From a virus: a stretch of 64,000 bases of DNA. The first letter of the stretch is position 1. Every line of letters starts with the position of its first letter. Position numbers and translations under genes: made by a program. Shown piece after piece: positions 107-13,746 of this stretch. The notes beneath the pieces were generated by a model. It did no database searches, was not told where the DNA came from, and saw only the letters and a program-made list of their open reading frames with translations. The stretch lies in UHGV virus genome UHGV-0236300; one strand, written 5' to 3'.

Positions 107-847
107 GTGAAAGAGTTTAAAGAGGCGGCACACCATCCGTTTTTTGCAGATACGGTCAAATTGTTATCGGAGCTTCCACGCCGACCTACGAAGAAAGGTG
201 AAACCAAAACCCGTTACGAACCAGGCTATTGGGTTAAAAAACTTGAGAAGGATGGTTACTTCCGGCGTGAGCGTATTACTAAGGCAGAGTTCAGGAAGAT
301 TAAGCACTGCATACCGTATGAGGGGGATATCCAACGCGGAAGTTGTTGGCTAGGGCAGATGAGCAACATCTACCAGCAAGATTATGACCGTGTGCGTGCG
401 GCACTCCAGATTCCTGAAGGGGAAGATCTGTACCTGGTGTCGGAATCTCGTCTGCTTTGGACTGATCCTGATTGCCAATATGTTACAGAGAAGAATGTGG
501 AACATTTGTTGAAAGAGGATGCTTGGAAATTCTTACTAACTCGCGCAGCAAATGAAACTTCATATGACAGCCTGTACAGACAGTTAGGTAAAATTATCCC
601 CATGCAGGATTTTGGAAGTTATCGGCCACATTTCCACAAGTGGGAAGGTAGCACCACGTGGAAGTACGGTGAGCTAAATCATCGTGCCAAAATCTTAATC
701 GCCAACCGGGTTAAGTGCGGGAAGGCCTATATTGCAAGATTGGAAAAGAAATATCCACTTTTGAAGCATGTAGGCTTGAAATATTGGGATACTCCTGCTA
801 TGATTGAATACCGTGAACTGATTGATACAAAGAATAACATCAAATAA
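107..847 (+). CDS. hypothetical protein (possibly 5'-truncated by the window edge)
   Basis: ORF track; frame stays open back to nt 2 with no ATG, so the gene may begin upstream of the window or at GTG 107; no recognisable motif. Confidence 0.45.
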   Translation: MKEFKEAAHHPFFADTVKLLSELPRRPTKKGETKTRYEPGYWVKKLEKDGYFRRERITKAEFRKIKHCIPYEGDIQRGSCWLGQMSNIYQQDYDRVRAALQIPEGEDLYLVSESRLLWTDPDCQYVTEKNVEHLLKEDAWKFLLTRAANETSYDSLYRQLGKIIPMQDFGSYRPHFHKWEGSTTWKYGELNHRAKILIANRVKCGKAYIARLEKKYPLLKHVGLKYWDTPAMIEYRELIDTKNNIK

Positions 848-857
848 GGAGACCAAG

Positions 858-2063
858 ATGATTTTCATCTACGAACATTTCAAAACTCGTAAAGAAGCAC
901 GTGACCGCCGTGCAGAGCTTGAGAAGAAGGGTTTCACATGCGCTATTGAGAAAGGTAACACAACCTGGACACTGGCAGTAGGTGCCCCAGAGTTGTTCGA
1001 TCCTGACCGTGACAGCGTCTGCTACACCCGTGAGGATTTTGAAACCCGTGAAGAGGCCCGTTTATTTCGATATGGGCTGGAAGATAACGGTAAGTACGCC
1101 ATGATCTTAGACTTAGGCGAAGGTTCCGTTAAACGTTGGGGCGTGGTATATCCGCTGTGTGTTGTTCACGGTGTAGGGTTCACTGGGGTAGCAATCAAGT
1201 CAGAAGAACCTTTAGTAGAAGTCAAAGACCCGGTGCTGGAGGTGGTGAGCAGTGTGTCTCAGCAACAGACCCGAAGCATCGAGCCTTTGGTGGTTATTTG
1301 CGGGGAACTCCTCCAGATCACCTGCAACGAAGGTATTTTTGAAATTCGCCGCAGTGAAAGTGAGGAAGTTTACCAGAAAGTCTTCGACCATATCTCTGTT
1401 CAGGAATATGACGAGGCAATTGGTGAAATCCTTGTCTGGCTGGAACGCAAGAATGAGTTCACCACACTTGCAGACAACCTGATCATGAAAGATGGTAAGC
1501 TCTACTACTACGGTGTAGAGATGCGATCCACCATTGCAAAGAAAATTGAGAAAGATTATGCAGACGGAACACTGGATGACCGCTATGTGAAATTCCTCGT
1601 TCGCCTGCTACGCAATCCTTCTGCAAAATCTGTAAACATGCTCTACGATTTTATGCAGGCAAACGACATTCAGATTGCAGAAGATGGTCGAATCATTTGC
1701 TACAAAGGGGTTCAGTTTAACGGCGACAAGTGGGTGGATTGGCACAGTGGTAAAGTCCCACAATACCAGGGGGCTTTTGTATCCATGCCTCGTAACTTTG
1801 TAGAGGATGATCCGGAAGCTGCATGCTCTTATGGCCTGCACTGTGCCAGCAAAGAGTATGCAAAGAGCTACGGAACTGTGATGACGGTTATGGTTGACCC
1901 TGCTGATGTAGTTAGTGTACCTTACCGACACAACAGCGCCAAGTGCCGTGCATGCCGCTACGAAATCGTAGTAGCTCCAGAATCGCGCAAAGATGGCGAC
2001 CCAATTGAGTACGTGGTTGACCGCGACGGTAATACTATCGACATTATCTACGAGGAGGCGTAA
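858..2063 (+). CDS. hypothetical protein
   Basis: Long ORF (track 822..2063); ATG 858 preceded by AAGGAG; no recognisable catalytic motif. Confidence 0.6.
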   Translation: MIFIYEHFKTRKEARDRRAELEKKGFTCAIEKGNTTWTLAVGAPELFDPDRDSVCYTREDFETREEARLFRYGLEDNGKYAMILDLGEGSVKRWGVVYPLCVVHGVGFTGVAIKSEEPLVEVKDPVLEVVSSVSQQQTRSIEPLVVICGELLQITCNEGIFEIRRSESEEVYQKVFDHISVQEYDEAIGEILVWLERKNEFTTLADNLIMKDGKLYYYGVEMRSTIAKKIEKDYADGTLDDRYVKFLVRLLRNPSAKSVNMLYDFMQANDIQIAEDGRIICYKGVQFNGDKWVDWHSGKVPQYQGAFVSMPRNFVEDDPEAACSYGLHCASKEYAKSYGTVMTVMVDPADVVSVPYRHNSAKCRACRYEIVVAPESRKDGDPIEYVVDRDGNTIDIIYEEA

Positions 2064-3433
2064 TGGAAAAAGGGCAGTACGATGTAGGCACAGATGCTGC
2101 CCTTGTTGCAATCATGAGCGGTGAGAATGTCTTCGTAAGTGGACCTGGTGGAACCGGGAAGACATATCTTATCAACATGATCCAGTCCATGTATGGAGAC
2201 TCTTGCATAACGGTTGCCCCGACAGGGGTAGCCGCTTTAAACGTTAATGGAGCAACAGCGCACCGAACTTTCGATCTTGCCGCAGGTGTGAGCATGGAGT
2301 CAGACTGGACAGCAATAAGGGCAAAAACAGCAAAGCCTCTGAAAAGCAAGGCATTTACCATCCTGATTATCGATGAAATCTCTATGATCCGTGCTGACAA
2401 GTTCATAGAGATGGATAGAAAACTCCGCTTTCTTCGGAAAAATGACAAACCTTTCGGAGGCATTCAGGTGTTATTGTTTGGAGATTTCTACCAAGCACCT
2501 CCAGTTGTCTCTTCTATGGAGAAAGAAGCCTACTTCAACTTCTACCACACAGATCTGTGTTGCTATACAGAATCTTGGGAGGATCTTAATCTTCACAACA
2601 TAGCCTTGGTAGACCAGTTCCGTCAGGAATCTGTTCGCTTCGCCACAATGTTGAACTGTGTTCGTGAAGGTCGTCGCATAAAAGAGGTTGTAGCAGAGCT
2701 TAACACTCGTTGCTATCATGGTGGTGTCCCAACAGATGCCTTGACCATCTGTGCCACCAATAAGCAAGCAGAGGAGGTGAACAGACGTTTCTATGATGCC
2801 ATCAAGGCCCCAGAGAAGACCTACATTGGTAAAATGAAAGGTAAGTTCCCTTCCACACTACCTGTGGAGCAGGAAATGAGGCTGAAGATAGGGATGAAGG
2901 TTATGATAACCTCAAACGATGTTGACCCTACTCACAAAGTTCCGTATTATGTTAACGGGACACGTGCCACAGTGGTAAAATTCAAGACCAAATCCGTAGT
3001 AGTTGAGCTAGAAGACGGAACACAGGTTGAAATTGAGCCGAGATTGTGGGAGAATAACGAGTACAAACCTTCCCAGAGGTACAATATTGCCGAAAGGAAG
3101 ATGGAGAAGTTCATAGAGAGGGTTGTGATCGGGTCTTATGAGCAACTTCCTTTGAAATCTGGGTACGCAGTAACATCGCATAAAAGTCAAGGACTTACGT
3201 TAGATTGTTACAACCTAGACCTCGGAAAGAACGGAGCTTTCTCTCCCGGAATGACGTATGTTGCCTTGAGTCGGGTTAAGACGATACAAGGAATAAACTT
3301 GTTGCGTCCATTAAGAGAGGTGGATATTATTGTTGACCCGAGAGTCGTAGAGTTTTATAATACAACTTTCCCTGGCTTAGACGAGAAAGTCAGGAAAGAT
3401 TTTGAAACTAGAGCAGAAAAGGGGGACGTATGA
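2063..3433 (+). CDS. SF1B DNA helicase (Dda/RecD/Pif1-like)
   Basis: Walker A GPGGTGKT, Walker B LIIDEISMI, FGDFYQAPPV, and C-terminal TSHKSQGLT motif typical of RecD/Dda helicases. Confidence 0.85.
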   Translation: MEKGQYDVGTDAALVAIMSGENVFVSGPGGTGKTYLINMIQSMYGDSCITVAPTGVAALNVNGATAHRTFDLAAGVSMESDWTAIRAKTAKPLKSKAFTILIIDEISMIRADKFIEMDRKLRFLRKNDKPFGGIQVLLFGDFYQAPPVVSSMEKEAYFNFYHTDLCCYTESWEDLNLHNIALVDQFRQESVRFATMLNCVREGRRIKEVVAELNTRCYHGGVPTDALTICATNKQAEEVNRRFYDAIKAPEKTYIGKMKGKFPSTLPVEQEMRLKIGMKVMITSNDVDPTHKVPYYVNGTRATVVKFKTKSVVVELEDGTQVEIEPRLWENNEYKPSQRYNIAERKMEKFIERVVIGSYEQLPLKSGYAVTSHKSQGLTLDCYNLDLGKNGAFSPGMTYVALSRVKTIQGINLLRPLREVDIIVDPRVVEFYNTTFPGLDEKVRKDFETRAEKGDV

Positions 3434-3771
3434 GTTTGTGGAGAAATATCGTTAACTACGTGTGTGGCAATCCGACTCCTGAAGAGAAGGATGTTGTGAT
3501 TCACGATTTTACTAAAAGATCTCGTGAAAAAGATCTACTGCTAACAAAGGTGACTGATAAAGATCCTGCAGTAGGGGACTGGGCAGGTTTTGCGTTTACA
3601 TCGGACAAATACACCTTTAACAAAGGTGACTACCTTGTTGTGGATTTTAACGAAGATATTGAGGGTGCTGAACCTTACTATCAAACCCTTATTGTTGCAG
3701 GGTGTGTTGATCTCTCTGCAGGCATGCACAGTTTGATTCTTTTTGAGCTTGACTCTGAAGACCTTGAGTAG
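3430..3771 (+). CDS. hypothetical protein
   Basis: ORF overlapping the helicase stop by 4 nt (coupled); no motif. Confidence 0.5.
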   Translation: MSLWRNIVNYVCGNPTPEEKDVVIHDFTKRSREKDLLLTKVTDKDPAVGDWAGFAFTSDKYTFNKGDYLVVDFNEDIEGAEPYYQTLIVAGCVDLSAGMHSLILFELDSEDLE

Positions 3772-7249: not shown

Positions 7250-9317
7250 ATTCATGGCATCTGCATACAACCGTTTCGGTGAGCCAAACCCGAAAGCAAC
7301 TAAGTATAAAAGTGGGGGAAGTGTGAAACGAGACTATCGTGATGAAAAAGAAGTTGAAACTGTAGAGACTGTTTTAGAAAATACTAAAATTGTCCCTGTT
7401 CCACAACAAAATATTGGACTGATGGCTGCACAATATTTTGGTGTACGATCATCGCTATCCCAAGAGGATGGTGTAACTGTTACTGCCACCTACTTTCCGT
7501 ATTATGACCGCTACGGTAATCTATCTGGCTTTAAAAAGCGGGACTGGACAATCCCTAAAGAGCAAAGGGGCCATTTCTCGGTTGTTGGCATAGTAAAGGC
7601 CAACTCCCAGATGTTTGGTCAAAAGCTGTGTGCATCCTCCAACAACCGCAAGCAGATTAACGTTTGTGAGGGGGAAGGAGATGTTATTGCAGCGTGGCAG
7701 GCTGCATATCAGGTACAAGTAAAAGGAATTCTCACCAATACTAAAGCCCCGGCGAAGGTGAAGCAGTGGGCTAAAGAAGTCCAGGATGGGATTGATGCAG
7801 TTATCAACGGCGGTGATCTGGCAGGAAAACCATGCCTGCCTTTTGTCGGAATTAACTGCGGGTGTGCAAACGCCGTAGACACTTTTGCGAACAATGAGAA
7901 ATTTATCCGTAGCTACGGAACAGTAGTCCTTGCAATGGACAACGATGCAGCTAACGAGGTAGAGAAGCAAAAACACGTTATCAAAGGTGTTGAAGCTACG
8001 CATAATATCGCAGCATTTTTGATGGCTGACAACGTTTACCACGTGGAATACCCAGGTGAGGTAAACGACCCTGATGGTGTAAAAGATATTCGTGACATGC
8101 TGAAGGCTAAAAAGCTGGAAGATATTGTCAACATGTTCCGTCACCCAGTCAAATATGTGCCTGATGCTGTATCTGATTTAGAAGACTTCTCCATTGAATC
8201 TCTTCGTAAGAAGACTTCCAATGGCGTGGATATCAGTGCAGAGTTCCCTAAACTGCAGAAGATGCTGAAAGGACTCCACAAAGGCACCTTGATGATGCTG
8301 ACAGGCCCGTCTGGCGGTGGTAAAACAACTGTAGCCAAGAAGCTGGAACATTGCATTGCAAGATACTTGATGGACCCAACATGCCCTAAAGCTGATGATT
8401 ATGAAGAGGATGATCGCCTGTGCCTGATTCACCTTGAAGAGGATCCTGAGGAAGCAATCAACTCTCTGTACGCTAACCAGCTGGGGTTTGATGTTAAAGA
8501 GTTTGTTGAAGACCCCAGTCAGTTCCTGACCGATCAGGAGCACGCTGAGATTCATCAATCTTGGGCCAAGGCCGGAAAAATCAAAGTGTTCAAGCATTTC
8601 GGCTCCATCCCTGTAGATGAGCTGATCACTAAGCTTAAACAAATGGTGTGCCTGTATCACTGCCGTTACATTGTGCTGGATCACTTGTCTATGGTGATTT
8701 CAGGGCTTAATGTTAAGGATGAGCGTAAAGAGCTTGACATGGCTATGACTCAACTAGCCGCGTTCTGTAAGCAGTTTAATGTGTTTATCTTGGTGATTGC
8801 TCACCTGAAGCGCACAGAGATTGTACCTCCGAAGGATAAGGATGGAAATCCGTTACCTTTCTGGTACCCTGTACGAAAAGAGAACCTTCGCGGTAGTGCC
8901 GGATTGGAGCAACTTAGCTGGGTGGTTGTCGGGGTAGAGGCAGAGGAGATGGTGGATCGTTCCCGTGGGCGTGTCCGGCTGGTAGGTCTTAAAAACCGCC
9001 CAGCAAAAACCTTAGGTATTGCGGACACTCTAGTTATGGATCCCCACACAGGCAAGTTCCACGATGCCAGCAATTGGTATTGGGATAAAGAGATGCAGAT
9101 GTTTACAGACGGGGAAGGTGGAGAGGTTGTTTGGAGACCTCAAGCTATGTTTGAGGATCAGGAGCATGCAGTTGTAGAAACACCTGTGGGCAAGGTTGTG
9201 GCTGATAAGGTTATAACTCCTGCTGTTAACCCTGTTGACACACAGGAAGATCTTCAGTATGATGATCCGTCCTCTAACCACGTTCCTGGTTTTGAAGACG
9301 ACGAAACACCTTTTTAA
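7239..9317 (+). CDS. bifunctional primase-helicase (toprim primase + DnaB-like helicase, T7 gp4-like)
   Basis: Toprim-like CEGEGD and MDNDAAN; helicase Walker A TGPSGGGKTT, Walker B IVLDHL, LVIAHLKR; acidic C-terminus ending DDETPF. Confidence 0.85.
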   Translation: MGSKFMASAYNRFGEPNPKATKYKSGGSVKRDYRDEKEVETVETVLENTKIVPVPQQNIGLMAAQYFGVRSSLSQEDGVTVTATYFPYYDRYGNLSGFKKRDWTIPKEQRGHFSVVGIVKANSQMFGQKLCASSNNRKQINVCEGEGDVIAAWQAAYQVQVKGILTNTKAPAKVKQWAKEVQDGIDAVINGGDLAGKPCLPFVGINCGCANAVDTFANNEKFIRSYGTVVLAMDNDAANEVEKQKHVIKGVEATHNIAAFLMADNVYHVEYPGEVNDPDGVKDIRDMLKAKKLEDIVNMFRHPVKYVPDAVSDLEDFSIESLRKKTSNGVDISAEFPKLQKMLKGLHKGTLMMLTGPSGGGKTTVAKKLEHCIARYLMDPTCPKADDYEEDDRLCLIHLEEDPEEAINSLYANQLGFDVKEFVEDPSQFLTDQEHAEIHQSWAKAGKIKVFKHFGSIPVDELITKLKQMVCLYHCRYIVLDHLSMVISGLNVKDERKELDMAMTQLAAFCKQFNVFILVIAHLKRTEIVPPKDKDGNPLPFWYPVRKENLRGSAGLEQLSWVVVGVEAEEMVDRSRGRVRLVGLKNRPAKTLGIADTLVMDPHTGKFHDASNWYWDKEMQMFTDGEGGEVVWRPQAMFEDQEHAVVETPVGKVVADKVITPAVNPVDTQEDLQYDDPSSNHVPGFEDDETPF

Positions 9318-9375: not shown

Positions 9376-11799
9376 ATGAGCATGTGGTCGTTCGATTTTG
9401 AGGCCTCTGGCTTGCTGGAAGACCCAGATCTTTATTATCACTGCGGTTTGTTTAAAGAGCTGAATAAGAACCGTTTTATGCTGTTCCTTCCCCTAAATGA
9501 CCGCACACACTACTCTGAAGAGGATGTGGAGAAAGCTAAGAACTTCATTCTGGCAAAGAAGACCCTTTATACAGATTTTGAGGCTCGCATAGCAGATTTT
9601 TCAGAGTTGGAAGGCTGGCTTACAGGCAATTCAGACTGGTCACCTACGGCTTTGAACTGTCATAACTGCTACAGTTACGACTTTATGCTGATGGAAAGAT
9701 TATCCGGTATTCATTTTGATATGTTCCGTGATCCTAAATGCATGGGAACTATCAACGACCACCAGGTTAATCTGTTTGATACGTTAGCGATGAGTCGAAT
9801 CTTGTGGCCTGACCGCCCTTTGCCAAAAGGTTGTCCAGACGCAGTATTCAATCCAGTTACCAAGAAAATGCAGCCTGTTGGACCTCATGGTCTTATGGCA
9901 TGGGGCTATGCCCTTGGTAACCAGAAAGTTCAAATCGATGACTGGCGGGAGCTTCCGCTGTGGAAGTATGTGGATCGTGTGTTCGAGGACGTTATCATTC
10001 AGGAGTTGCTCTGGAAGGAGTTGGTAGCGGAATCAAAAGGTGTATTCTACGGCAAATCTGACATGCAGAACTTTATGTACGATCCTGCCAAAGAGAAGCC
10101 GAAAGGCTTCAAGAAGATCACCTGGAAGAACGCATTACGCCGAGGCATGTTACAGCACTTCCTGATGGAGCTGCAGGCTCGACAGGGGGTGTATTTCGAC
10201 ATAGATGGGGCTATTGCTTTACGTGATCGTTGCGATGCGTGGATGAAAGAGATCGCTGATCGTGTTGAACCACAGCTTCCTTTAAAAGAGTTATCAATGT
10301 CTCAGCGGCCTAAGTTCCCTGAAAAGCCGTTTAACCAGGATGGGACAATCTCCAATAATGGTTGGAAATGGTTAAAAGACAAGCTTGGCTATCCTGTGGA
10401 CATGAGTGCTTTAGAATTTAAAGCCCCTCCTAAGCGAGCATTTACCTCCACAGGGGATGTAAGTAAGATGGGGATAAAATGGTGTGAAGAGATGGGCTGT
10501 AAAGACCCCGATAAGATGGCTGATTTCTTGAGGGGGTATATCAAAGGAACTTCTACACCACACCCTTTACCTAAAGAGCTGATGGATCAGGCGATAAGTG
10601 ACCTACAGCAGAAGCGAATGCCTGACTGCAAGATACCCATGAAAATCAGCAATCAGGACGACATCAAGCGATACCTGATCAGTGCTGGTTGGCTCCCAAC
10701 AATGTGGAGAACTAAGGATGTAACTAAGGATAGCAAGAAGAAAGCTTTACCTGATGCAGATGTTGATGCACGAGTATATGCATATATGGACGAGCTTTTG
10801 GAGTCAGAGTATTGTGACCTAATTATCAACTTCTGGAACAAAACTGATGCTAAGTTCCAGACAACTGTACATAAGTTCAGAAGCTTCCCTAACTCTGAAA
10901 GAATTAAAAAGGAAGTGTTCGGGAAAATACGTAGAAAAGCCAGAGCGCTTATTACTTCTCCGCAACTGAAAGATACGTTTGGGCACCTGTGCCCGAATCT
11001 TGAAAAATTGAACGGAGAGATGGCTAAAGATATCGTTTTGTGGTTATCATTGCGAAACCGTAGATCGGTCCTTGATCCAATCAAGGAAGATAAGGTTGAT
11101 ACTGGTCTTCTTAATCATCCACGTTTGAAGATTGACCACAAACTTCCTGCTAAAAGTTCTGGATTAACAAACACTTCCAGACAGAAACATAGTATTTGTG
11201 CAAACATGCCTAAACCATCTCCTAAAGTGGTTATGGGTAAAGAGATGCGTAGTCTGTGGGGTGTTCCTCCGGGATACTTTGAGATCGGTATTGACGGGTC
11301 CAACTTAGAGCAGCTCATCGGGGCCTGGGGTGCCTTTGAGTTTGACAACGGTCTGTATTATGATGTTGTAAGTAACGGGGACGCGCACCAAAACAATGCT
11401 GAGGCATATACAAAAGTAGCAGGTAGAGAGGTGTCCCGTAACGATGGTAAACCTATCACGTATGGGGTTATGTATGGGGCACAAAAAGATAAAGTTGCAG
11501 ATATGCTGGATATCTCTCCCGAACTGGGGCAGAGAGTAATCGATGCTCTCTGGGATGCCAACCCAGGTCTTAAGGGGCGCAAAGAGGATCTGGAGAAATT
11601 CTGGGAAGCAACAGGTAAGAAATTTATCTACTCTTTTGACGGGCATGCTATTTGGACACGCTCTAAACACTCTTTGCTTAATGCATATCAGCAAAATGGC
11701 GGTGCATCACTGTGTGACCTAGTTGGGATACTCATGCACCACCAGATGGTGAAGCGTGGATGGTATGATGAGGGTGTTCGTCGTATTATTTATTACCAT
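9376..11799 (+). CDS. DNA polymerase, family A (T7 gp5-like), exon 1
   Basis: N-terminal exo motif FDFEASGL and AWGYALG; motif A IDGSNLE, motif B KPITYGVMYG; ORF stops right after ...IIYYH-K, the H being the His of motif C (HDE). Confidence 0.8.
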
Positions 11800-12641
11800 A
11801 AATAACATTGTGGCTTCGTGCAGTGATGCACGTCGAAAACCTCTTTAATTGACGGGAAGGCTAAGTTGACTTTTACGCCTAAACATGGTAAAAGCTCAAT
11901 ATGCTAATCCGCAGCGAAGACTAAAGGGGTGTAGTTAAAATGGCTAGATCAGTTGATTATCACGGATATACCGTGTTTGATGATGGAACAATACCTTTAT
12001 CGAAACGTGATCATACAACAATGTTTTGTTTTGATAATGGTAGAGGTTACCTTTGCGTAACCATGCTCATCGAGGGGAAGCAGTGCACAAAAGGTGTCCA
12101 CCACTTGGTTGCTGAATGCTTTGTACCGAACCCTGATCCTGAAAAGCTCACATGGGTGAACCATAAGGATGGAAATAAGTACAACAATGCATACTGGAAC
12201 TTGGAATGGACTACCCCTGGCGGAAATATCAAACACGCCTACGATAATGAACTCAGAGTAAGGCCAGTCGGTGAGTATAATGCCAACGCTGTACTGACCG
12301 AGGATGAGGTAACGGAGATTTGTGAACTGTTGCAGAGTGGTCTACGACAATGCGAGATTAGGGATCTTGGGTATCCTTATGAGACGGTTAGGGCCATAAA
12401 GCAAAGAAGACAGTGGAAACATATCTCTAAAAACTACACCTGGTAGTAACGTTCAGAGACTATCGAAAGCATAGCTCCAACATAGTTTGGTGTGAAGAAG
12501 CGAGTAGAGTAGGCCAGCAAGTGCGGTCGAAATGAGAGGTGCCTTGGTGACAAGGCAGTGAGATAGTCCGATCCATACAGGAAACCGTATGGCTGTGCAC
12601 GTAATGGTGCGGGGTAGCTTAACGACCTACCTGAACTATTG
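11800..12641 (+). mobile_element. group I intron interrupting the DNA polymerase gene at motif C, carrying an HNH homing endonuclease ORF
   Basis: Exon 1 ends in U, intron ends in G before GATGAG; IGS-like GUGG near 5' end; conserved P (AATTGACGGGAAGG ~11847), Q (AATCCGCAGC ~11906), R (GTTCAGAGACTA ~12451), S (AGATAGTCC ~12561) elements. Confidence 0.8.
11940..12446 (+). CDS. HNH homing endonuclease (intron-encoded)
   Basis: HNH motif VNHKDGNKYNN...NLEW; lies between intron elements Q and R. Confidence 0.8.
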   Translation: MARSVDYHGYTVFDDGTIPLSKRDHTTMFCFDNGRGYLCVTMLIEGKQCTKGVHHLVAECFVPNPDPEKLTWVNHKDGNKYNNAYWNLEWTTPGGNIKHAYDNELRVRPVGEYNANAVLTEDEVTEICELLQSGLRQCEIRDLGYPYETVRAIKQRRQWKHISKNYTW

Positions 12642-12995
12642 GATGAGTACCAACTTCAAGTGCCTGACACACCTAAGTATAAAACTGTATACACCTTCGA
12701 CACAATTGAAGAGCTGGAAACATTTAAAGCCCAACAAGAGGCTAAACTTCATGTGTTCGACGGTCATAAGTACAAAAAGGCACGCAAAGATGAGGACGGA
12801 AACGAAGTGGTTGACAAGGACGGAAATACGGTATACGATCCTATCTTGAACGATGACGGAAAGCTTGAACTTATCTGGAGCCCTGTGGGCGAAATGGTGG
12901 TGCATTGCTTCTGGCAGGCTTCTAAAATGATGGGCGTTCCGTTCCAGATCACAGGTGAATACTTGTGCGGTCGTAACTGGGGCGATTGTCACTAA
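12642..12995 (+). CDS. DNA polymerase, family A (T7 gp5-like), exon 2
   Basis: Begins DEYQLQV (completes HDE motif C); ends ...GRNWGDCH, matching the T7 DNA polymerase C-terminus ...GPNWAICH; in frame with exon 1 after removing the intron. Confidence 0.8.
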   Translation, partial: DEYQLQVPDTPKYKTVYTFDTIEELETFKAQQEAKLHVFDGHKYKKARKDEDGNEVVDKDGNTVYDPILNDDGKLELIWSPVGEMVVHCFWQASKMMGVPFQITGEYLCGRNWGDCH

Positions 12996-13046: not shown

Positions 13047-13331
13047 ATGGTAGTAGAACCAACAAAAACATTTACCTCCATGACTATCCCTGTCATTATG
13101 CAGGTAGAGTGCGTTCAGGTGTCCCAAGTGTGGCCCGGTACTAAAATTCCAACAGGGCCTGATTTCTTTCAGGTCGGCAAAGTGTATAATGTCTGGAAGG
13201 CACCGGATTGTTACCCTTTCATTAAAGATGACCGTGGAATGTTATGGTATCTGGGGAATGATTTGACACTGCATCTTGGAAATGCTATTATTGCAGTGTT
13301 CCGGCTCAACAAGAAGGAGACAGATCAATGA
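13047..13331 (+). CDS. hypothetical protein
   Basis: ORF with SD GAGAGGAG upstream. Confidence 0.5.
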   Translation: MVVEPTKTFTSMTIPVIMQVECVQVSQVWPGTKIPTGPDFFQVGKVYNVWKAPDCYPFIKDDRGMLWYLGNDLTLHLGNAIIAVFRLNKKETDQ

Positions 13332-13555
13332 CAACTTTGGTTAAAGCTACGTTTGTAGAAGAAAAGATGACAGACCTGTCATTCTTTGAAGAAGGTAAGG
13401 TCTACAAGGTTTATTACGATAAGGATCGCAGGAACAATATGATCGAAGACGAGGACGGTATCTCCTGGTATATCTCCCATCTGTCAAATGGTGAGTATCA
13501 TATCTATGGGACCACCCTACTTGCCAAGTTTGCAGTTGTTGAAGAGGATCTATGA
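13328..13555 (+). CDS. hypothetical protein
   Basis: ORF with start overlapping the upstream stop (ATGA coupling). Confidence 0.5.
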   Translation: MTTLVKATFVEEKMTDLSFFEEGKVYKVYYDKDRRNNMIEDEDGISWYISHLSNGEYHIYGTTLLAKFAVVEEDL

Positions 13556-13746
13556 AAGTAAAGTATCTGGCTGAAGGTATGAGTAGGTATTTTACCCTTG
13601 GGGAAGAGTATTGGCCCTTCACGGAAAATGGAGATGTATACGTGAAGGATGACCAAGGTGTGCCGTGGTTTCTGCACCCTAATGGGTTGGGATATTCCAT
13701 CTACTGCGGTGCGGTGAACAACACAACCCTTGCAGAGTTTGTATAG
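13552..13746 (+). CDS. hypothetical protein
   Basis: ORF with ATGA overlap with the upstream gene. Confidence 0.45.
   Translation: MKVKYLAEGMSRYFTLGEEYWPFTENGDVYVKDDQGVPWFLHPNGLGYSIYCGAVNNTTLAEFV

Follow-up and report, generated by a model that had tools for sequence, protein, structure and literature searches.

The polymerase locus and its exons

The window analysed here, 64,000 nucleotides in length, derives from an rV5/FV3-like coliphage of the genus Vequintavirus that is ~95% identical to phage FV3. Its DNA polymerase gene is in two pieces separated by a sequence that carries an HNH homing-endonuclease gene (Table 1). The upstream ORF (9376..11805) ends ...RRIIYYHK; its last His codon (11797-11799) is followed by AAA TAA, so an unspliced reading adds a Lys and stops at the TAA at 11803-11805. 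The downstream ORF opens with a TTG at 12639, reads (M)DEYQLQV...GRNWGDCH and terminates at 12995. On reading the sequence, no Shine-Dalgarno motif was seen upstream of this TTG. Exon 1 matches PF00476 (E 1.5e-6), the only family A polymerase match found in a search confined to the ORFs of this locus.

The joined 925-aa protein aligns with T7 gp5 (E 5.5e-16 by phmmer against the PDB, 3e-15 by BLASTP), unbroken across the junction, where IIYYH/DEYQL lies opposite MAWVHDEIQV. The predicted ligated product regains the His-Asp-Glu of motif C (YYHDEYQL, compared with WVHDEIQV in T7). It also regains the C-terminal His, ...GRNWGDCH corresponding to ...GPNWAICH in T7 with ...NW..CH at the terminal His in both; this segment alone scores weakly (E 0.24). 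The predicted junction peptide is ...IIYYHDEYQLQVPDTPK, and the predicted ligated nucleotide junction is ...TATTACCAT/GATGAGTAC..., 842 nt shorter than the genomic form. An initial annotation, made from the sequence alone, had described a polymerase ORF stopping one codon past ...IIYYH and a separate ORF at 12639 with a DEYQLQV start and a GRNWGDCH end like that of T7 gp5. Both descriptions hold, as does its expectation that the joined protein would align continuously with T7 gp5 through motif C.

In intron-less Vequintavirus alleles, present in S127 BCL3, typing phage 14, slur16, HdK5 and JohannBauhin, the 925-aa polymerase is encoded without a break. The S127 polymerase, a single piece, is 100% identical to the predicted ligated product over its last 259 aa. 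GenBank entry QXV77979.1, from phage EmilHeitz of the BASEL collection, is the exact product of the 11799/12642 splice sites in that phage. Sequence comparison thus supports an intron at motif C with the predicted coordinates 11799/12642 exactly. The ligated sequence equals that of the intron-less alleles and restores the host reading frame; the ligation itself we infer.

The intron is already known, near-identical copies being annotated as such in public records. Copies in sister Vequintavirus phages (FV3, APECc02, EmilHeitz, HeinrichReichert, WalterGehring and others) are 96-98% identical to it over all 842 nt, occupy the same site, contain the same HNH ORF and differ by point substitutions only. 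GenBank records of sister phages in the BASEL collection annotate the polymerase as a two-piece join, with intron boundaries set by comparative genomics (PMC8594841). In the original rV5 paper the polymerase is given as 775 aa long, and the terminase gene is the only one for which introns are mentioned (PMC3606486). In many public rV5-like genomes the locus still appears as a truncated 'DNA polymerase', a 'hypothetical protein' and a free-standing HNH gene; the correct annotation for these would be a single 925-aa enzyme joined at 11799/12642.

Table 1. Exons, intron, helices and endonuclease gene at the polymerase locus (window coordinates; helices as modelled).
Feature	Coordinates	Strand	Remarks
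DNA polymerase exon 1	9376..11799	+	808 codons, last residues ...IIYYH (His of motif C)
Group I intron	11800..12641	+	842 nt; 5' AAAUAA, 3' ...CUAUUG with terminal G12641; boundaries from intron-less alleles
P1	11796..11813	+	exon CCAU + intron AA (11796-11801) with internal guide UUGUGG (11808-11813)
P2 hairpin	11817..11832	+	CGUGCA-GUGA-UGCACG; 6/6 pairs covary, 100% of cells paired; also in minimum-free-energy fold
P3 5' strand	11839..11843	+	ACCUC, partner 12536-12540 (GAGGU); compensatory changes in 3/5 pairs
P4-P5-P5a-P5b domain	11850..11913	+	Rfam alignment, helix model, covariation, minimum-free-energy fold
P4	11850-11851 + 11853-11856 with 11908-11913	+	P and Q elements
P5	11859-11861 with 11903-11905	+	
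P5a	11866-11869 with 11896-11899	+	
P5b	11870-11876 with 11888-11894	+	
P6	11915..12451	+	C11915-G12451, G11916-C12450; both pairs covary
ORF-bearing insert in P6 loop	about 11917-12447	+	replaces 17-nt hairpin of ORF-less SYGMH1 intron (alignment)
HNH homing-endonuclease gene	11940..12446	+	168 aa, I-HmuI-like; in P6 loop
Catalytic core, 3' part	12458..12568	+	Rfam alignment, helix model, covariation
P7	12458-12462 (R) with 12564-12568 (S)	+	
P7.1	12463-12503	+	
P7.2	12512-12528	+	
P3 3' strand	12536-12540	+	
P8	12541-12556	+	
P9/P9.1/P9.2 + 3' tail to G12641	12573..12641	+	97-100% of cells paired in P9 helices
P9	12573-12592	+	GAAA loop; 3 pairs covary
P9.1	12596-12611	+	2 pairs covary
P9.2	12613-12631	+	3 pairs covary
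Candidate P10	GAUG 12642-12645 with CAUU 11806-11809	+	columns almost invariant: no covariation support
DNA polymerase exon 2	12642..12995	+	DEYQLQV...GRNWGDCH plus stop

Fold of the intervening RNA and its reading frame

Exon 1 closes with U11799 and the intron with G12641. The guide is GUGG (11810-11813), its pairing partner in the exon is CCAU (11796-11799), and the resulting helix has a U11799·G11810 wobble at the 5' splice site. P1 is recovered by both the Rfam alignment and the minimum-free-energy fold, and all six of its pairs are kept in 14/14 relatives; these pairs are nearly invariant, so they are consistent with the helix without showing covariation. By way of an ORF-less copy of the intron in phage SYGMH1, the P, Q, R and S elements and the conserved core P3-P4-P6-P7-P8 that define a group I intron were found.

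Across all 64 kb of the window, Rfam gives a single match, to RF00028. The score of the window copy, 31.1 bits (E 4.6e-4 for the whole window, 1.1e-5 for the locus), is below the gathering threshold of 50 bits, and the run places the 3' half wrongly, inside the ORF. We attribute the low score to the HNH ORF, which sits in the P6 loop and so interrupts P6. The SYGMH1 copy, 97.8% identical to the window intron outside the insert, reaches 75.6 bits (E 2.8e-19). Other relatives at the same site score 91.2, 64.7, 54.4 and 48.7 bits, within an overall range of 39-91.

A helix model was evaluated on 14 same-site introns. In it, 90.8% of cells are paired, compared with 34-41% in slid controls, and compensatory changes on both sides occur at 43 pairs. 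The covariation score of 0.376 (against 0.06-0.09) was reached by none of 500 shuffles, and the covarying helices are P2, P3, P6, P7, P7.2, P8, P9, P9.1 and P9.2. Minimum-free-energy folding of the 5' half recovers P1, P2, P4 and P5 (z = -2.58); the 3' half by itself is thermodynamically unexceptional (z = -1.06). The P5a/P5b periphery is variable, aligns poorly between genera and is 59.5% paired. Exon 2 begins GAC GAA in SPA01, weakening the candidate P10. All core helices are intact in the window copy, and the pattern of substitutions indicates a core under covariation-preserving selection. The fold would be that of a subgroup IA type group I ribozyme with extra P7.1/P7.2 and P9.1/P9.2 helices. 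No second copy of the intron or of the HNH gene was found elsewhere in the 64-kb window.

The HNH ORF has Q (the 3' strand of P4, 11908-11913) on its 5' side and R (the 5' strand of P7, 12458-12462) on its 3' side. A possible Shine-Dalgarno sequence, AAAGGGG, precedes it by ~10 nt, and no promoter-like site occurs on the plus strand within the intron ahead of it. The ORF matches PHROG 59 (E 1.9e-38) and, below the curated cut-off of 24.8 bits, PF13392 (HNH_3; 20.9 bits, E 2.9e-4). Its best solved-structure match is I-HmuI (PDB 1U3E, E 3.9e-5). An HNH/HNN motif is present, with ...VNHKDGNKYNNAYWNLEW...GGN aligning with I-HmuI His75, Asn87 and Asn96. The protein is 57% identical to the HNH protein of the SSE121 intron and 50% to that of SPA01.

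The initial annotation had attributed to 11800-12641 an exon-terminal U, an intron-terminal G, a GUGG guide and P, Q, R and S elements, and had set the HNH ORF (11940-12446) between Q and R. Each of these features was confirmed, the ORF falling in the P6 loop, and the covariance model found the group I fold it had predicted, above threshold in the ORF-less copy and below threshold in the window copy.

Proposed splicing and the alternatives to it

We propose, with a probability of about 0.93, that a group I intron carrying an I-HmuI-like HNH gene splits the polymerase at motif C and that splicing restores the 925-aa enzyme. The initial annotation had advanced the same reading, which is supported by the intron-less alleles, the EmilHeitz product, the Rfam match, the covariation and the splicing of a related intron in the Certrevirus CB7. 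The second polymerase intron of CB7 and phiTE occupies the same insertion site (...IIYYH/DEYQLE...). In phiTE it is a homologous ribozyme, which gives a blastn match to the 3' 140 nt of the window intron, scores 48.7 bits on RF00028 and fits the shared helix model. Removal of the CB7 counterpart from mRNA was demonstrated by RT-PCR and confirmed by sequencing (PMC7344957). The records and literature that we looked at contained no experimental splicing data for any Vequintavirus copy; catalysis in this phage, together with the activity and target of the endonuclease, we infer.

In the proposed mechanism, the polymerase gene would be transcribed as one pre-mRNA, of which the 842 intron nucleotides would fold into a ribozyme. 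The internal guide GUGG would pair with the exon end CCAU, free guanosine would attack after U11799, and the released exon would then attack after the terminal G12641. This would join ...TAC CAT to GAT GAG..., returning the His-Asp-Glu motif to a 925-aa T7-gp5-like polymerase. Unspliced RNA would yield only a truncated protein (...YYHK) lacking the catalytic Asp and Glu. When an intron-less relative infects the same cell, the HNH endonuclease may introduce a nick or a break into that relative's polymerase allele close to the insertion site, and repair of the allele would copy the intron in (homing).

It is improbable that the element is instead a decaying relic impaired in splicing, having lost self-splicing or come to need a protein cofactor, with an inactive endonuclease. 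The window copy is mismatched at one position of P9 (A·C) and at one of P7.1 (U·U), for which SYGMH1 shows G·U and U·G, the window endonuclease has Asn at the position aligned with I-HmuI Asp74, and the existence of ORF-less derivatives indicates that endonuclease loss does happen. Against decay, the core helices are unbroken, intact-ORF endonucleases at least 95% identical to this one occur in at least 31 phage records, and the exact protein is present on several ~135 kb contigs. Since no second polymerase was found among the ORFs searched, those of this locus, a non-splicing intron would be expected to be lethal.

Marginally less probable still is a split gene that dispenses with splicing, the cassette having fractured the polymerase into polypeptides of 809 aa and ~118 aa able to reassemble. 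Many GenBank records do annotate two separate 'DNA polymerase' CDSs. The CB7 study reported one HNH-associated insertion, in a nicotinamide phosphoribosyl transferase gene, that did not splice, and cited NrdA/mobE of Aeromonas phage Aeh1 as a precedent for a reassembling split gene (PMC7344957). In the window phage, however, the break separates His from Asp-Glu inside a single catalytic motif, and exon 2 would have to start at a mere TTG without a Shine-Dalgarno sequence. The intact ribozyme core with its covariation also argues against a split gene, as does the splicing of the homologous CB7 polymerase introns (PMC7344957).

An intein was rejected on account of the in-frame TAA two codons into the insert and the RNA-level group I fold. 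A free-standing endonuclease between two genes and a two-polypeptide polymerase were likewise rejected, since the ribozyme is intact and covaries and exon 2 has no translation signals of its own.

Relatives at the insertion site and possible homing

The element is a further instance of a mobile group I intron in an essential phage gene, placed where the encoded catalytic site is conserved, and biologically nothing about it is categorically new. In E. coli Pol I, motif C is His881-Asp882-Glu883. Bonocora and Shub reportedly described, in 2004, group I introns of phages ΦI and W31 that encode the HNH endonuclease I-TslI. Like the window element, these are group I introns that interrupt a family A polymerase gene and encode an HNH endonuclease; they are described as self-splicing. 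Both phages are T7-like and have their introns at Pol I site 881 (PMC3428280). As Pol I 881 is the motif C His, this is apparently the same position as in the window phage. ΦI and W31 are podoviruses, unlike the window phage, and no T7-like phage was among the matches listed in a blastn search with the window intron. The polymerase introns of SPO1, SP82, Bastille and Pf-WMP3 are elements of the same kind, with the nicking HNH endonucleases I-HmuI, I-HmuII, I-BasI and I-PfoP3I, but are inserted elsewhere, at Pol I site 674 in the fingers (PMC3428280). Similarity of the window endonuclease to those of this group is confined to ~65 residues around the HNH motif.

Among introns at the motif C site, the endonuclease and its placement vary. 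I-HmuI-like HNH genes lie in P6 in Vequintavirus, Avunavirus, SSE121, PBES02 and the Pakpunavirus SPA01, and the PVP-SE1 intron carries a LAGLIDADG endonuclease in P7.1. CB7 and phiTE encode a smaller HNH protein of 127 aa, 38% identical to the window HNH over 53 aa, around the HNH motif only. Its ORF starts upstream of Q and reads through P4'/P6, whereas the window ORF is wholly within the P6 loop; ORFs of 4L372D and phiA009 are placed like that of phiTE (a comparison of positions, not families). The CB7 and phiTE polymerase genes carry a further, upstream intron. ORF-free forms occur in SYGMH1, RudolfGeigy, TH18 and Vibrio K412. Scanning IMG/VR with the guide-sequence pattern TAACATTGTGGCYTYGT gave 24 loci. 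Six have the TACCAT exon end: those in the genomes of PVP-SE1, phiTE and 4L372D, one in a genome of 4L372D-like type, one on an SSE121-type contig and one on a contig whose shortness prevents a judgement. The remaining 18 matched by chance, and the scan added no new diversity. Tentatively, a single ribozyme lineage may have been fixed after the motif C His, with endonuclease genes of several kinds invading one or another of its loops, a reading on which we are close to evenly divided but lean slightly against.

Three states, namely intron with HNH gene, ORF-less intron and no intron, coexist among phages whose polymerase C-terminal regions are at least 95% identical. Across the insertion site, intron-less alleles of S127 type read …CAT GAC GAA TAT CAG… and those of JohannBauhin type …CAT GAT GAG TAC CAA…. 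Related coliphages in these states, with their distinct flanking synonymous variants, are of modest value as material for studies of homing and endonuclease specificity. If the single-lineage reading is correct, it would, together with the synonymous differences at the site, recommend rV5-like coliphages as a tractable system in E. coli for following endonuclease invasion, loss and target-site escape in real time. The differences in question number four, all within exon 2 nt +3 to +12, and separate the intron-containing alleles from four of the five intron-less ones.

Structure of the interrupted polymerase gene

The polymerase gene of this rV5-like coliphage lies in two open reading frames, with a third between them (see table). 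The first matches the family A polymerases (PF00476, E 1.5e-6), and its His codon at 11797-11799 is followed by AAA TAA. When the two coding segments are joined at 11799/12642, the resulting 925-aa protein aligns with T7 gp5 (E 5.5e-16). The alignment crosses the junction unbroken (...RRIIYYH/DEYQL against T7 motif C, ...AYMAWVHDEIQV), and both proteins end in ...NW..CH. The initial annotation had described a DNA polymerase split at motif C by a group I intron carrying an HNH endonuclease. Given these ORF readings and the motif C and C-terminal matches to T7 gp5, its sequence statements are all correct, including the ORF ends and the exon 2 ORF.

Coordinates of the polymerase locus and of related elements in other phages
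Feature	Sequence	Position	Strand	Remarks
σ70-type promoter-like site	window	9235-9263	+	TTGACA-17-TATGAT; 11/12 matches; near-consensus
Polymerase exon 1 ORF	window	9376-11805	+	ends ...GVRRIIYYHK, stop
168-aa ORF	window	11940-12446	+	between the two polymerase ORFs
Exon 2 ORF	window	12639-12995	+	start listed as TTG; (M)DEYQLQV...GRNWGDCH, stop
σ70-type promoter-like site	window	13263-13291	+	TTGACA-17-TATTAT with TG; 11/12 matches; near-consensus
LAGLIDADG gene, in P7.1	PVP-SE1 (L010)	592-1185		PF03161, E 1.4e-16
Small HNH gene	phiTE (L013)	2102-2485		ATG just upstream of Q element; reads through P4'/P6
ORF	4L372D (L011)	1093-1485		same place as phiTE small HNH

Escherichia phage FV3 shares 95% identity with the region, which matches 123 phage records, nearly all of them rV5-like Vequintavirus. 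A tblastn search with the final 259 aa of the ligated product showed that Vequintavirus genomes encode these residues as a single uninterrupted piece. S127 BCL3 is 100% identical over these residues, and the polymerase CDS annotated there, 2778 nt long, corresponds to 925 codons plus stop; the gene is likewise uninterrupted in typing phage 14, slur16, JohannBauhin, and HdK5. In the DNA, genes without the intron have ...TATTACCAT/GAYGAR..., and the 842-nt insert of the window falls exactly at this point. Comparison with natural alleles that lack the intron thus fixes the exon junction.

The polymerase intron is an already known element, since sister genomes annotate it as an intron and a homologue has been spliced experimentally. 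Records of the BASEL phage collection join the polymerase from two pieces around the same element, and translating EmilHeitz, one of these phages, with the window-derived splice sites reproduces QXV77979.1 exactly. Pol I site 881 is the His of His-Asp-Glu. Introns at site 881 were reported in the T7-like phages ΦI and W31, and introns at site 674 in SPO1, SP82, Bastille, and Pf-WMP3 (PMC3428280). By the reported site number, the insertion position in ΦI and W31 is apparently that of the window, so the site itself appears to have been known. The BASEL authors used comparative genomics to set intron boundaries (PMC8594841). The original rV5 paper, which gave a 775-aa polymerase and described introns in the terminase alone (PMC3606486), missed the polymerase intron. 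Many rV5-like records still present exon 1 as a complete polymerase and exon 2 as a 'hypothetical protein' (SYGMH1, L001 3250-3606; TH18, L006; phiWec196), and those of phages with ORF-less introns carry no flag of the split. The practical value of the finding is therefore annotation repair.

Group I fold and predicted splicing

The Rfam group I model RF00028 matches 11790-12046 with 31.1 bits (E 1.1e-5 locally, 4.6e-4 over the whole 64 kb), and an Rfam scan of the 64-kb window gave no other match. That it stays under the gathering score of 50 is due to the ORF, which the model cannot span. The 328-nt intron of SYGMH1 is 97.8% identical to that of the window outside the insert, a 17-nt hairpin standing in place of window ~11917-12447. 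In this ORF-less copy every core element aligns to the model, and the score reaches 75.6 bits (E 2.8e-19). Other introns at the same site score 91.2 (TH18), 64.7 (RudolfGeigy), 54.4 (PVP-SE1), and 48.7 bits (phiTE intron 2).

A helix model of the window intron (P1, P2, P3, P4, P5/5a/5b, P6, P7, P7.1, P7.2, P8, P9, P9.1, P9.2) was tested against 14 aligned introns of the same site, stripped of their ORFs and drawn from Vequintavirus, Avunavirus, Seunavirus, Certrevirus, Plateaulakevirus, Pakpunavirus, and a Vibrio phage. Standard pairs fill 90.8% of cells, against 34-41% when the 3' partners are slid by 1-3 columns, and the covariation score is 0.376 against 0.06-0.09; none of 500 shuffles attained the observed values. 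Changes on both sides occur in 43 of 83 pairs. These include all pairs in P2, 2-4 each in P3, P6, P7.2, P8, P9, P9.1, and P9.2, and one in P7. P1 (CCAUAA/UUGUGG, with a U11799·G11810 wobble) hardly varies, which is to be expected of a helix with one strand in a conserved block of codons; both the Rfam alignment and minimum-free-energy folding also find it. The last intron nucleotide is G12641. A possible 4-bp P10 pairs GAUG 12642-12645 with CAUU 11806-11809, but has no covariation support because its columns do not vary. By helix anatomy alone, the extra P7.1/P7.2 and P9.1/P9.2 helices give the intron the look of subgroup IA. Judged from sequence and covariation, the 842-nt insert is a group I intron, as first proposed.

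By established group I chemistry, guanosine would attack after U11799 and the freed exon would then attack after G12641. The fold, splice-site anatomy, and exact ligated sequence are established by the analysis; catalysis in this phage and activity of the endonuclease are predicted. A homologous intron in the Pectobacterium phage CB7 is removed from mRNA, as found by RT-PCR and confirmed by sequencing (PMC7344957). CB7 is a sister of phiTE, and its intron occupies the same YYH/DE site, providing indirect support for splicing in the window phage. A split polymerase functioning without splicing is unlikely, because selection preserves the structure of the ribozyme, exon 2 lacks a ribosome-binding site, and the break parts His from Asp-Glu inside a single catalytic motif. 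The interruption is thus confirmed, and its reading as a spliced intron is supported.

The HNH endonuclease gene and signs of intron mobility

The 168-aa ORF matches PHROG 59 'HNH endonuclease' (E 1.9e-38) and, at 20.9 bits against a curated cut-off of 24.8, PF13392 (E 2.9e-4). Its top solved-structure match is I-HmuI (1U3E, E 3.9e-5), the endonuclease of the SPO1 polymerase intron; the His75, Asn87, and Asn96 positions are kept, and Asp74 is replaced by Asn. These matches agree with the proposed homing-endonuclease gene, and the ORF, which lies in the P6 loop, is a putative gene for an I-HmuI-like HNH endonuclease. The SSE121 intron, also in its P6 loop, encodes an HNH 57% identical to the protein, and the one of Pseudomonas phage SPA01 is 50% identical, so the pairing of ribozyme and endonuclease is old. 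The identical sequence occurs on several ~135 kb contigs in public assemblies. A purine-rich AAAGGGG lies ~10 nt 5' of the ATG, and no σ70-like promoter was found ahead of the ORF within the intron.

Phages that share at least 95% identity over the polymerase C-terminal region show three states side by side: an HNH-bearing intron, an ORF-less intron (a 328-nt and a 276-nt version), and the absence of an intron. Exon 2 begins GAT GAG TAC CAA (12642-12653) in all intron-containing Vequintavirus alleles and GAC GAA TAT CAG in four of five intron-less ones, giving four consecutive synonymous differences (window compared with the intron-less L004, L044, L045, and L047, and with L046). JohannBauhin lacks the intron yet has the intron-type flank. 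Such a pattern is expected from co-conversion or target-site variation; the differences may reflect co-conversion, target-site escape, or recent precise intron loss. This natural allele series is convenient for homing experiments.

The MG0656xx records (about 16-21; C12, A147, A135, C7, and others) carry a Campylobacter jejuni phage label. They show 85-93% identity to the E. coli Vequintavirus region and share the intron polymorphism; their host label looks doubtful.

Related elements and neighbouring features

In PVP-SE1 and phiTE the same ribozyme at the same site carries different endonuclease genes in different loops, and 4L372D has an ORF at the position of the phiTE gene. phiTE also has a promoter-like TTGACA-N17-TATGAT in the P5 loop, upstream of its HNH ORF. 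Split genes for thymidylate synthase and for anaerobic ribonucleotide reductase in other phages contain short matches to the intron 3' core (75-84% identity over 55-82 nt), the loci being in Erwinia phage AH06 (L042, thymidylate synthase), Avunavirus 18-1-2 (L043, nrdD), and Pseudoalteromonas phage PH357 (L040). By this sequence similarity, other homing sites may hold related intron cores.

VB-EcoM-WM (PQ014731, L003) has an extra in-frame 323-aa insert in polymerase exon 1 (about 2514-3482), at a site equivalent to window position about 11389, after codon 671 (...SNGDAH). The insert begins with Cys and ends ...CGN followed by Cys. A Pfam search with it gave no match, but at the N-terminus it matches the AceL NrdHF intein (6ZGQ, E 7.7e-6), so this polymerase gene holds both an intein and the intron. 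Mangalyan probably has the same insert, given a shared ~970-nt length difference; the window polymerase lacks it.

The upstream σ70-type site in the window lies within the end of the primase/helicase gene, ~110 nt 5' of the polymerase start; overall, the count of such sites shows no excess over shuffled expectation. Just 3' of the polymerase, at 13047-13746 (+), are three adjacent small ORFs of 94, 75, and 64 aa. They look like tandem paralogues, sharing in a MAFFT alignment the pattern G-x-VY ... DD/E-x-G-x-xW(Y/F)(L/I) ... A-x-F.
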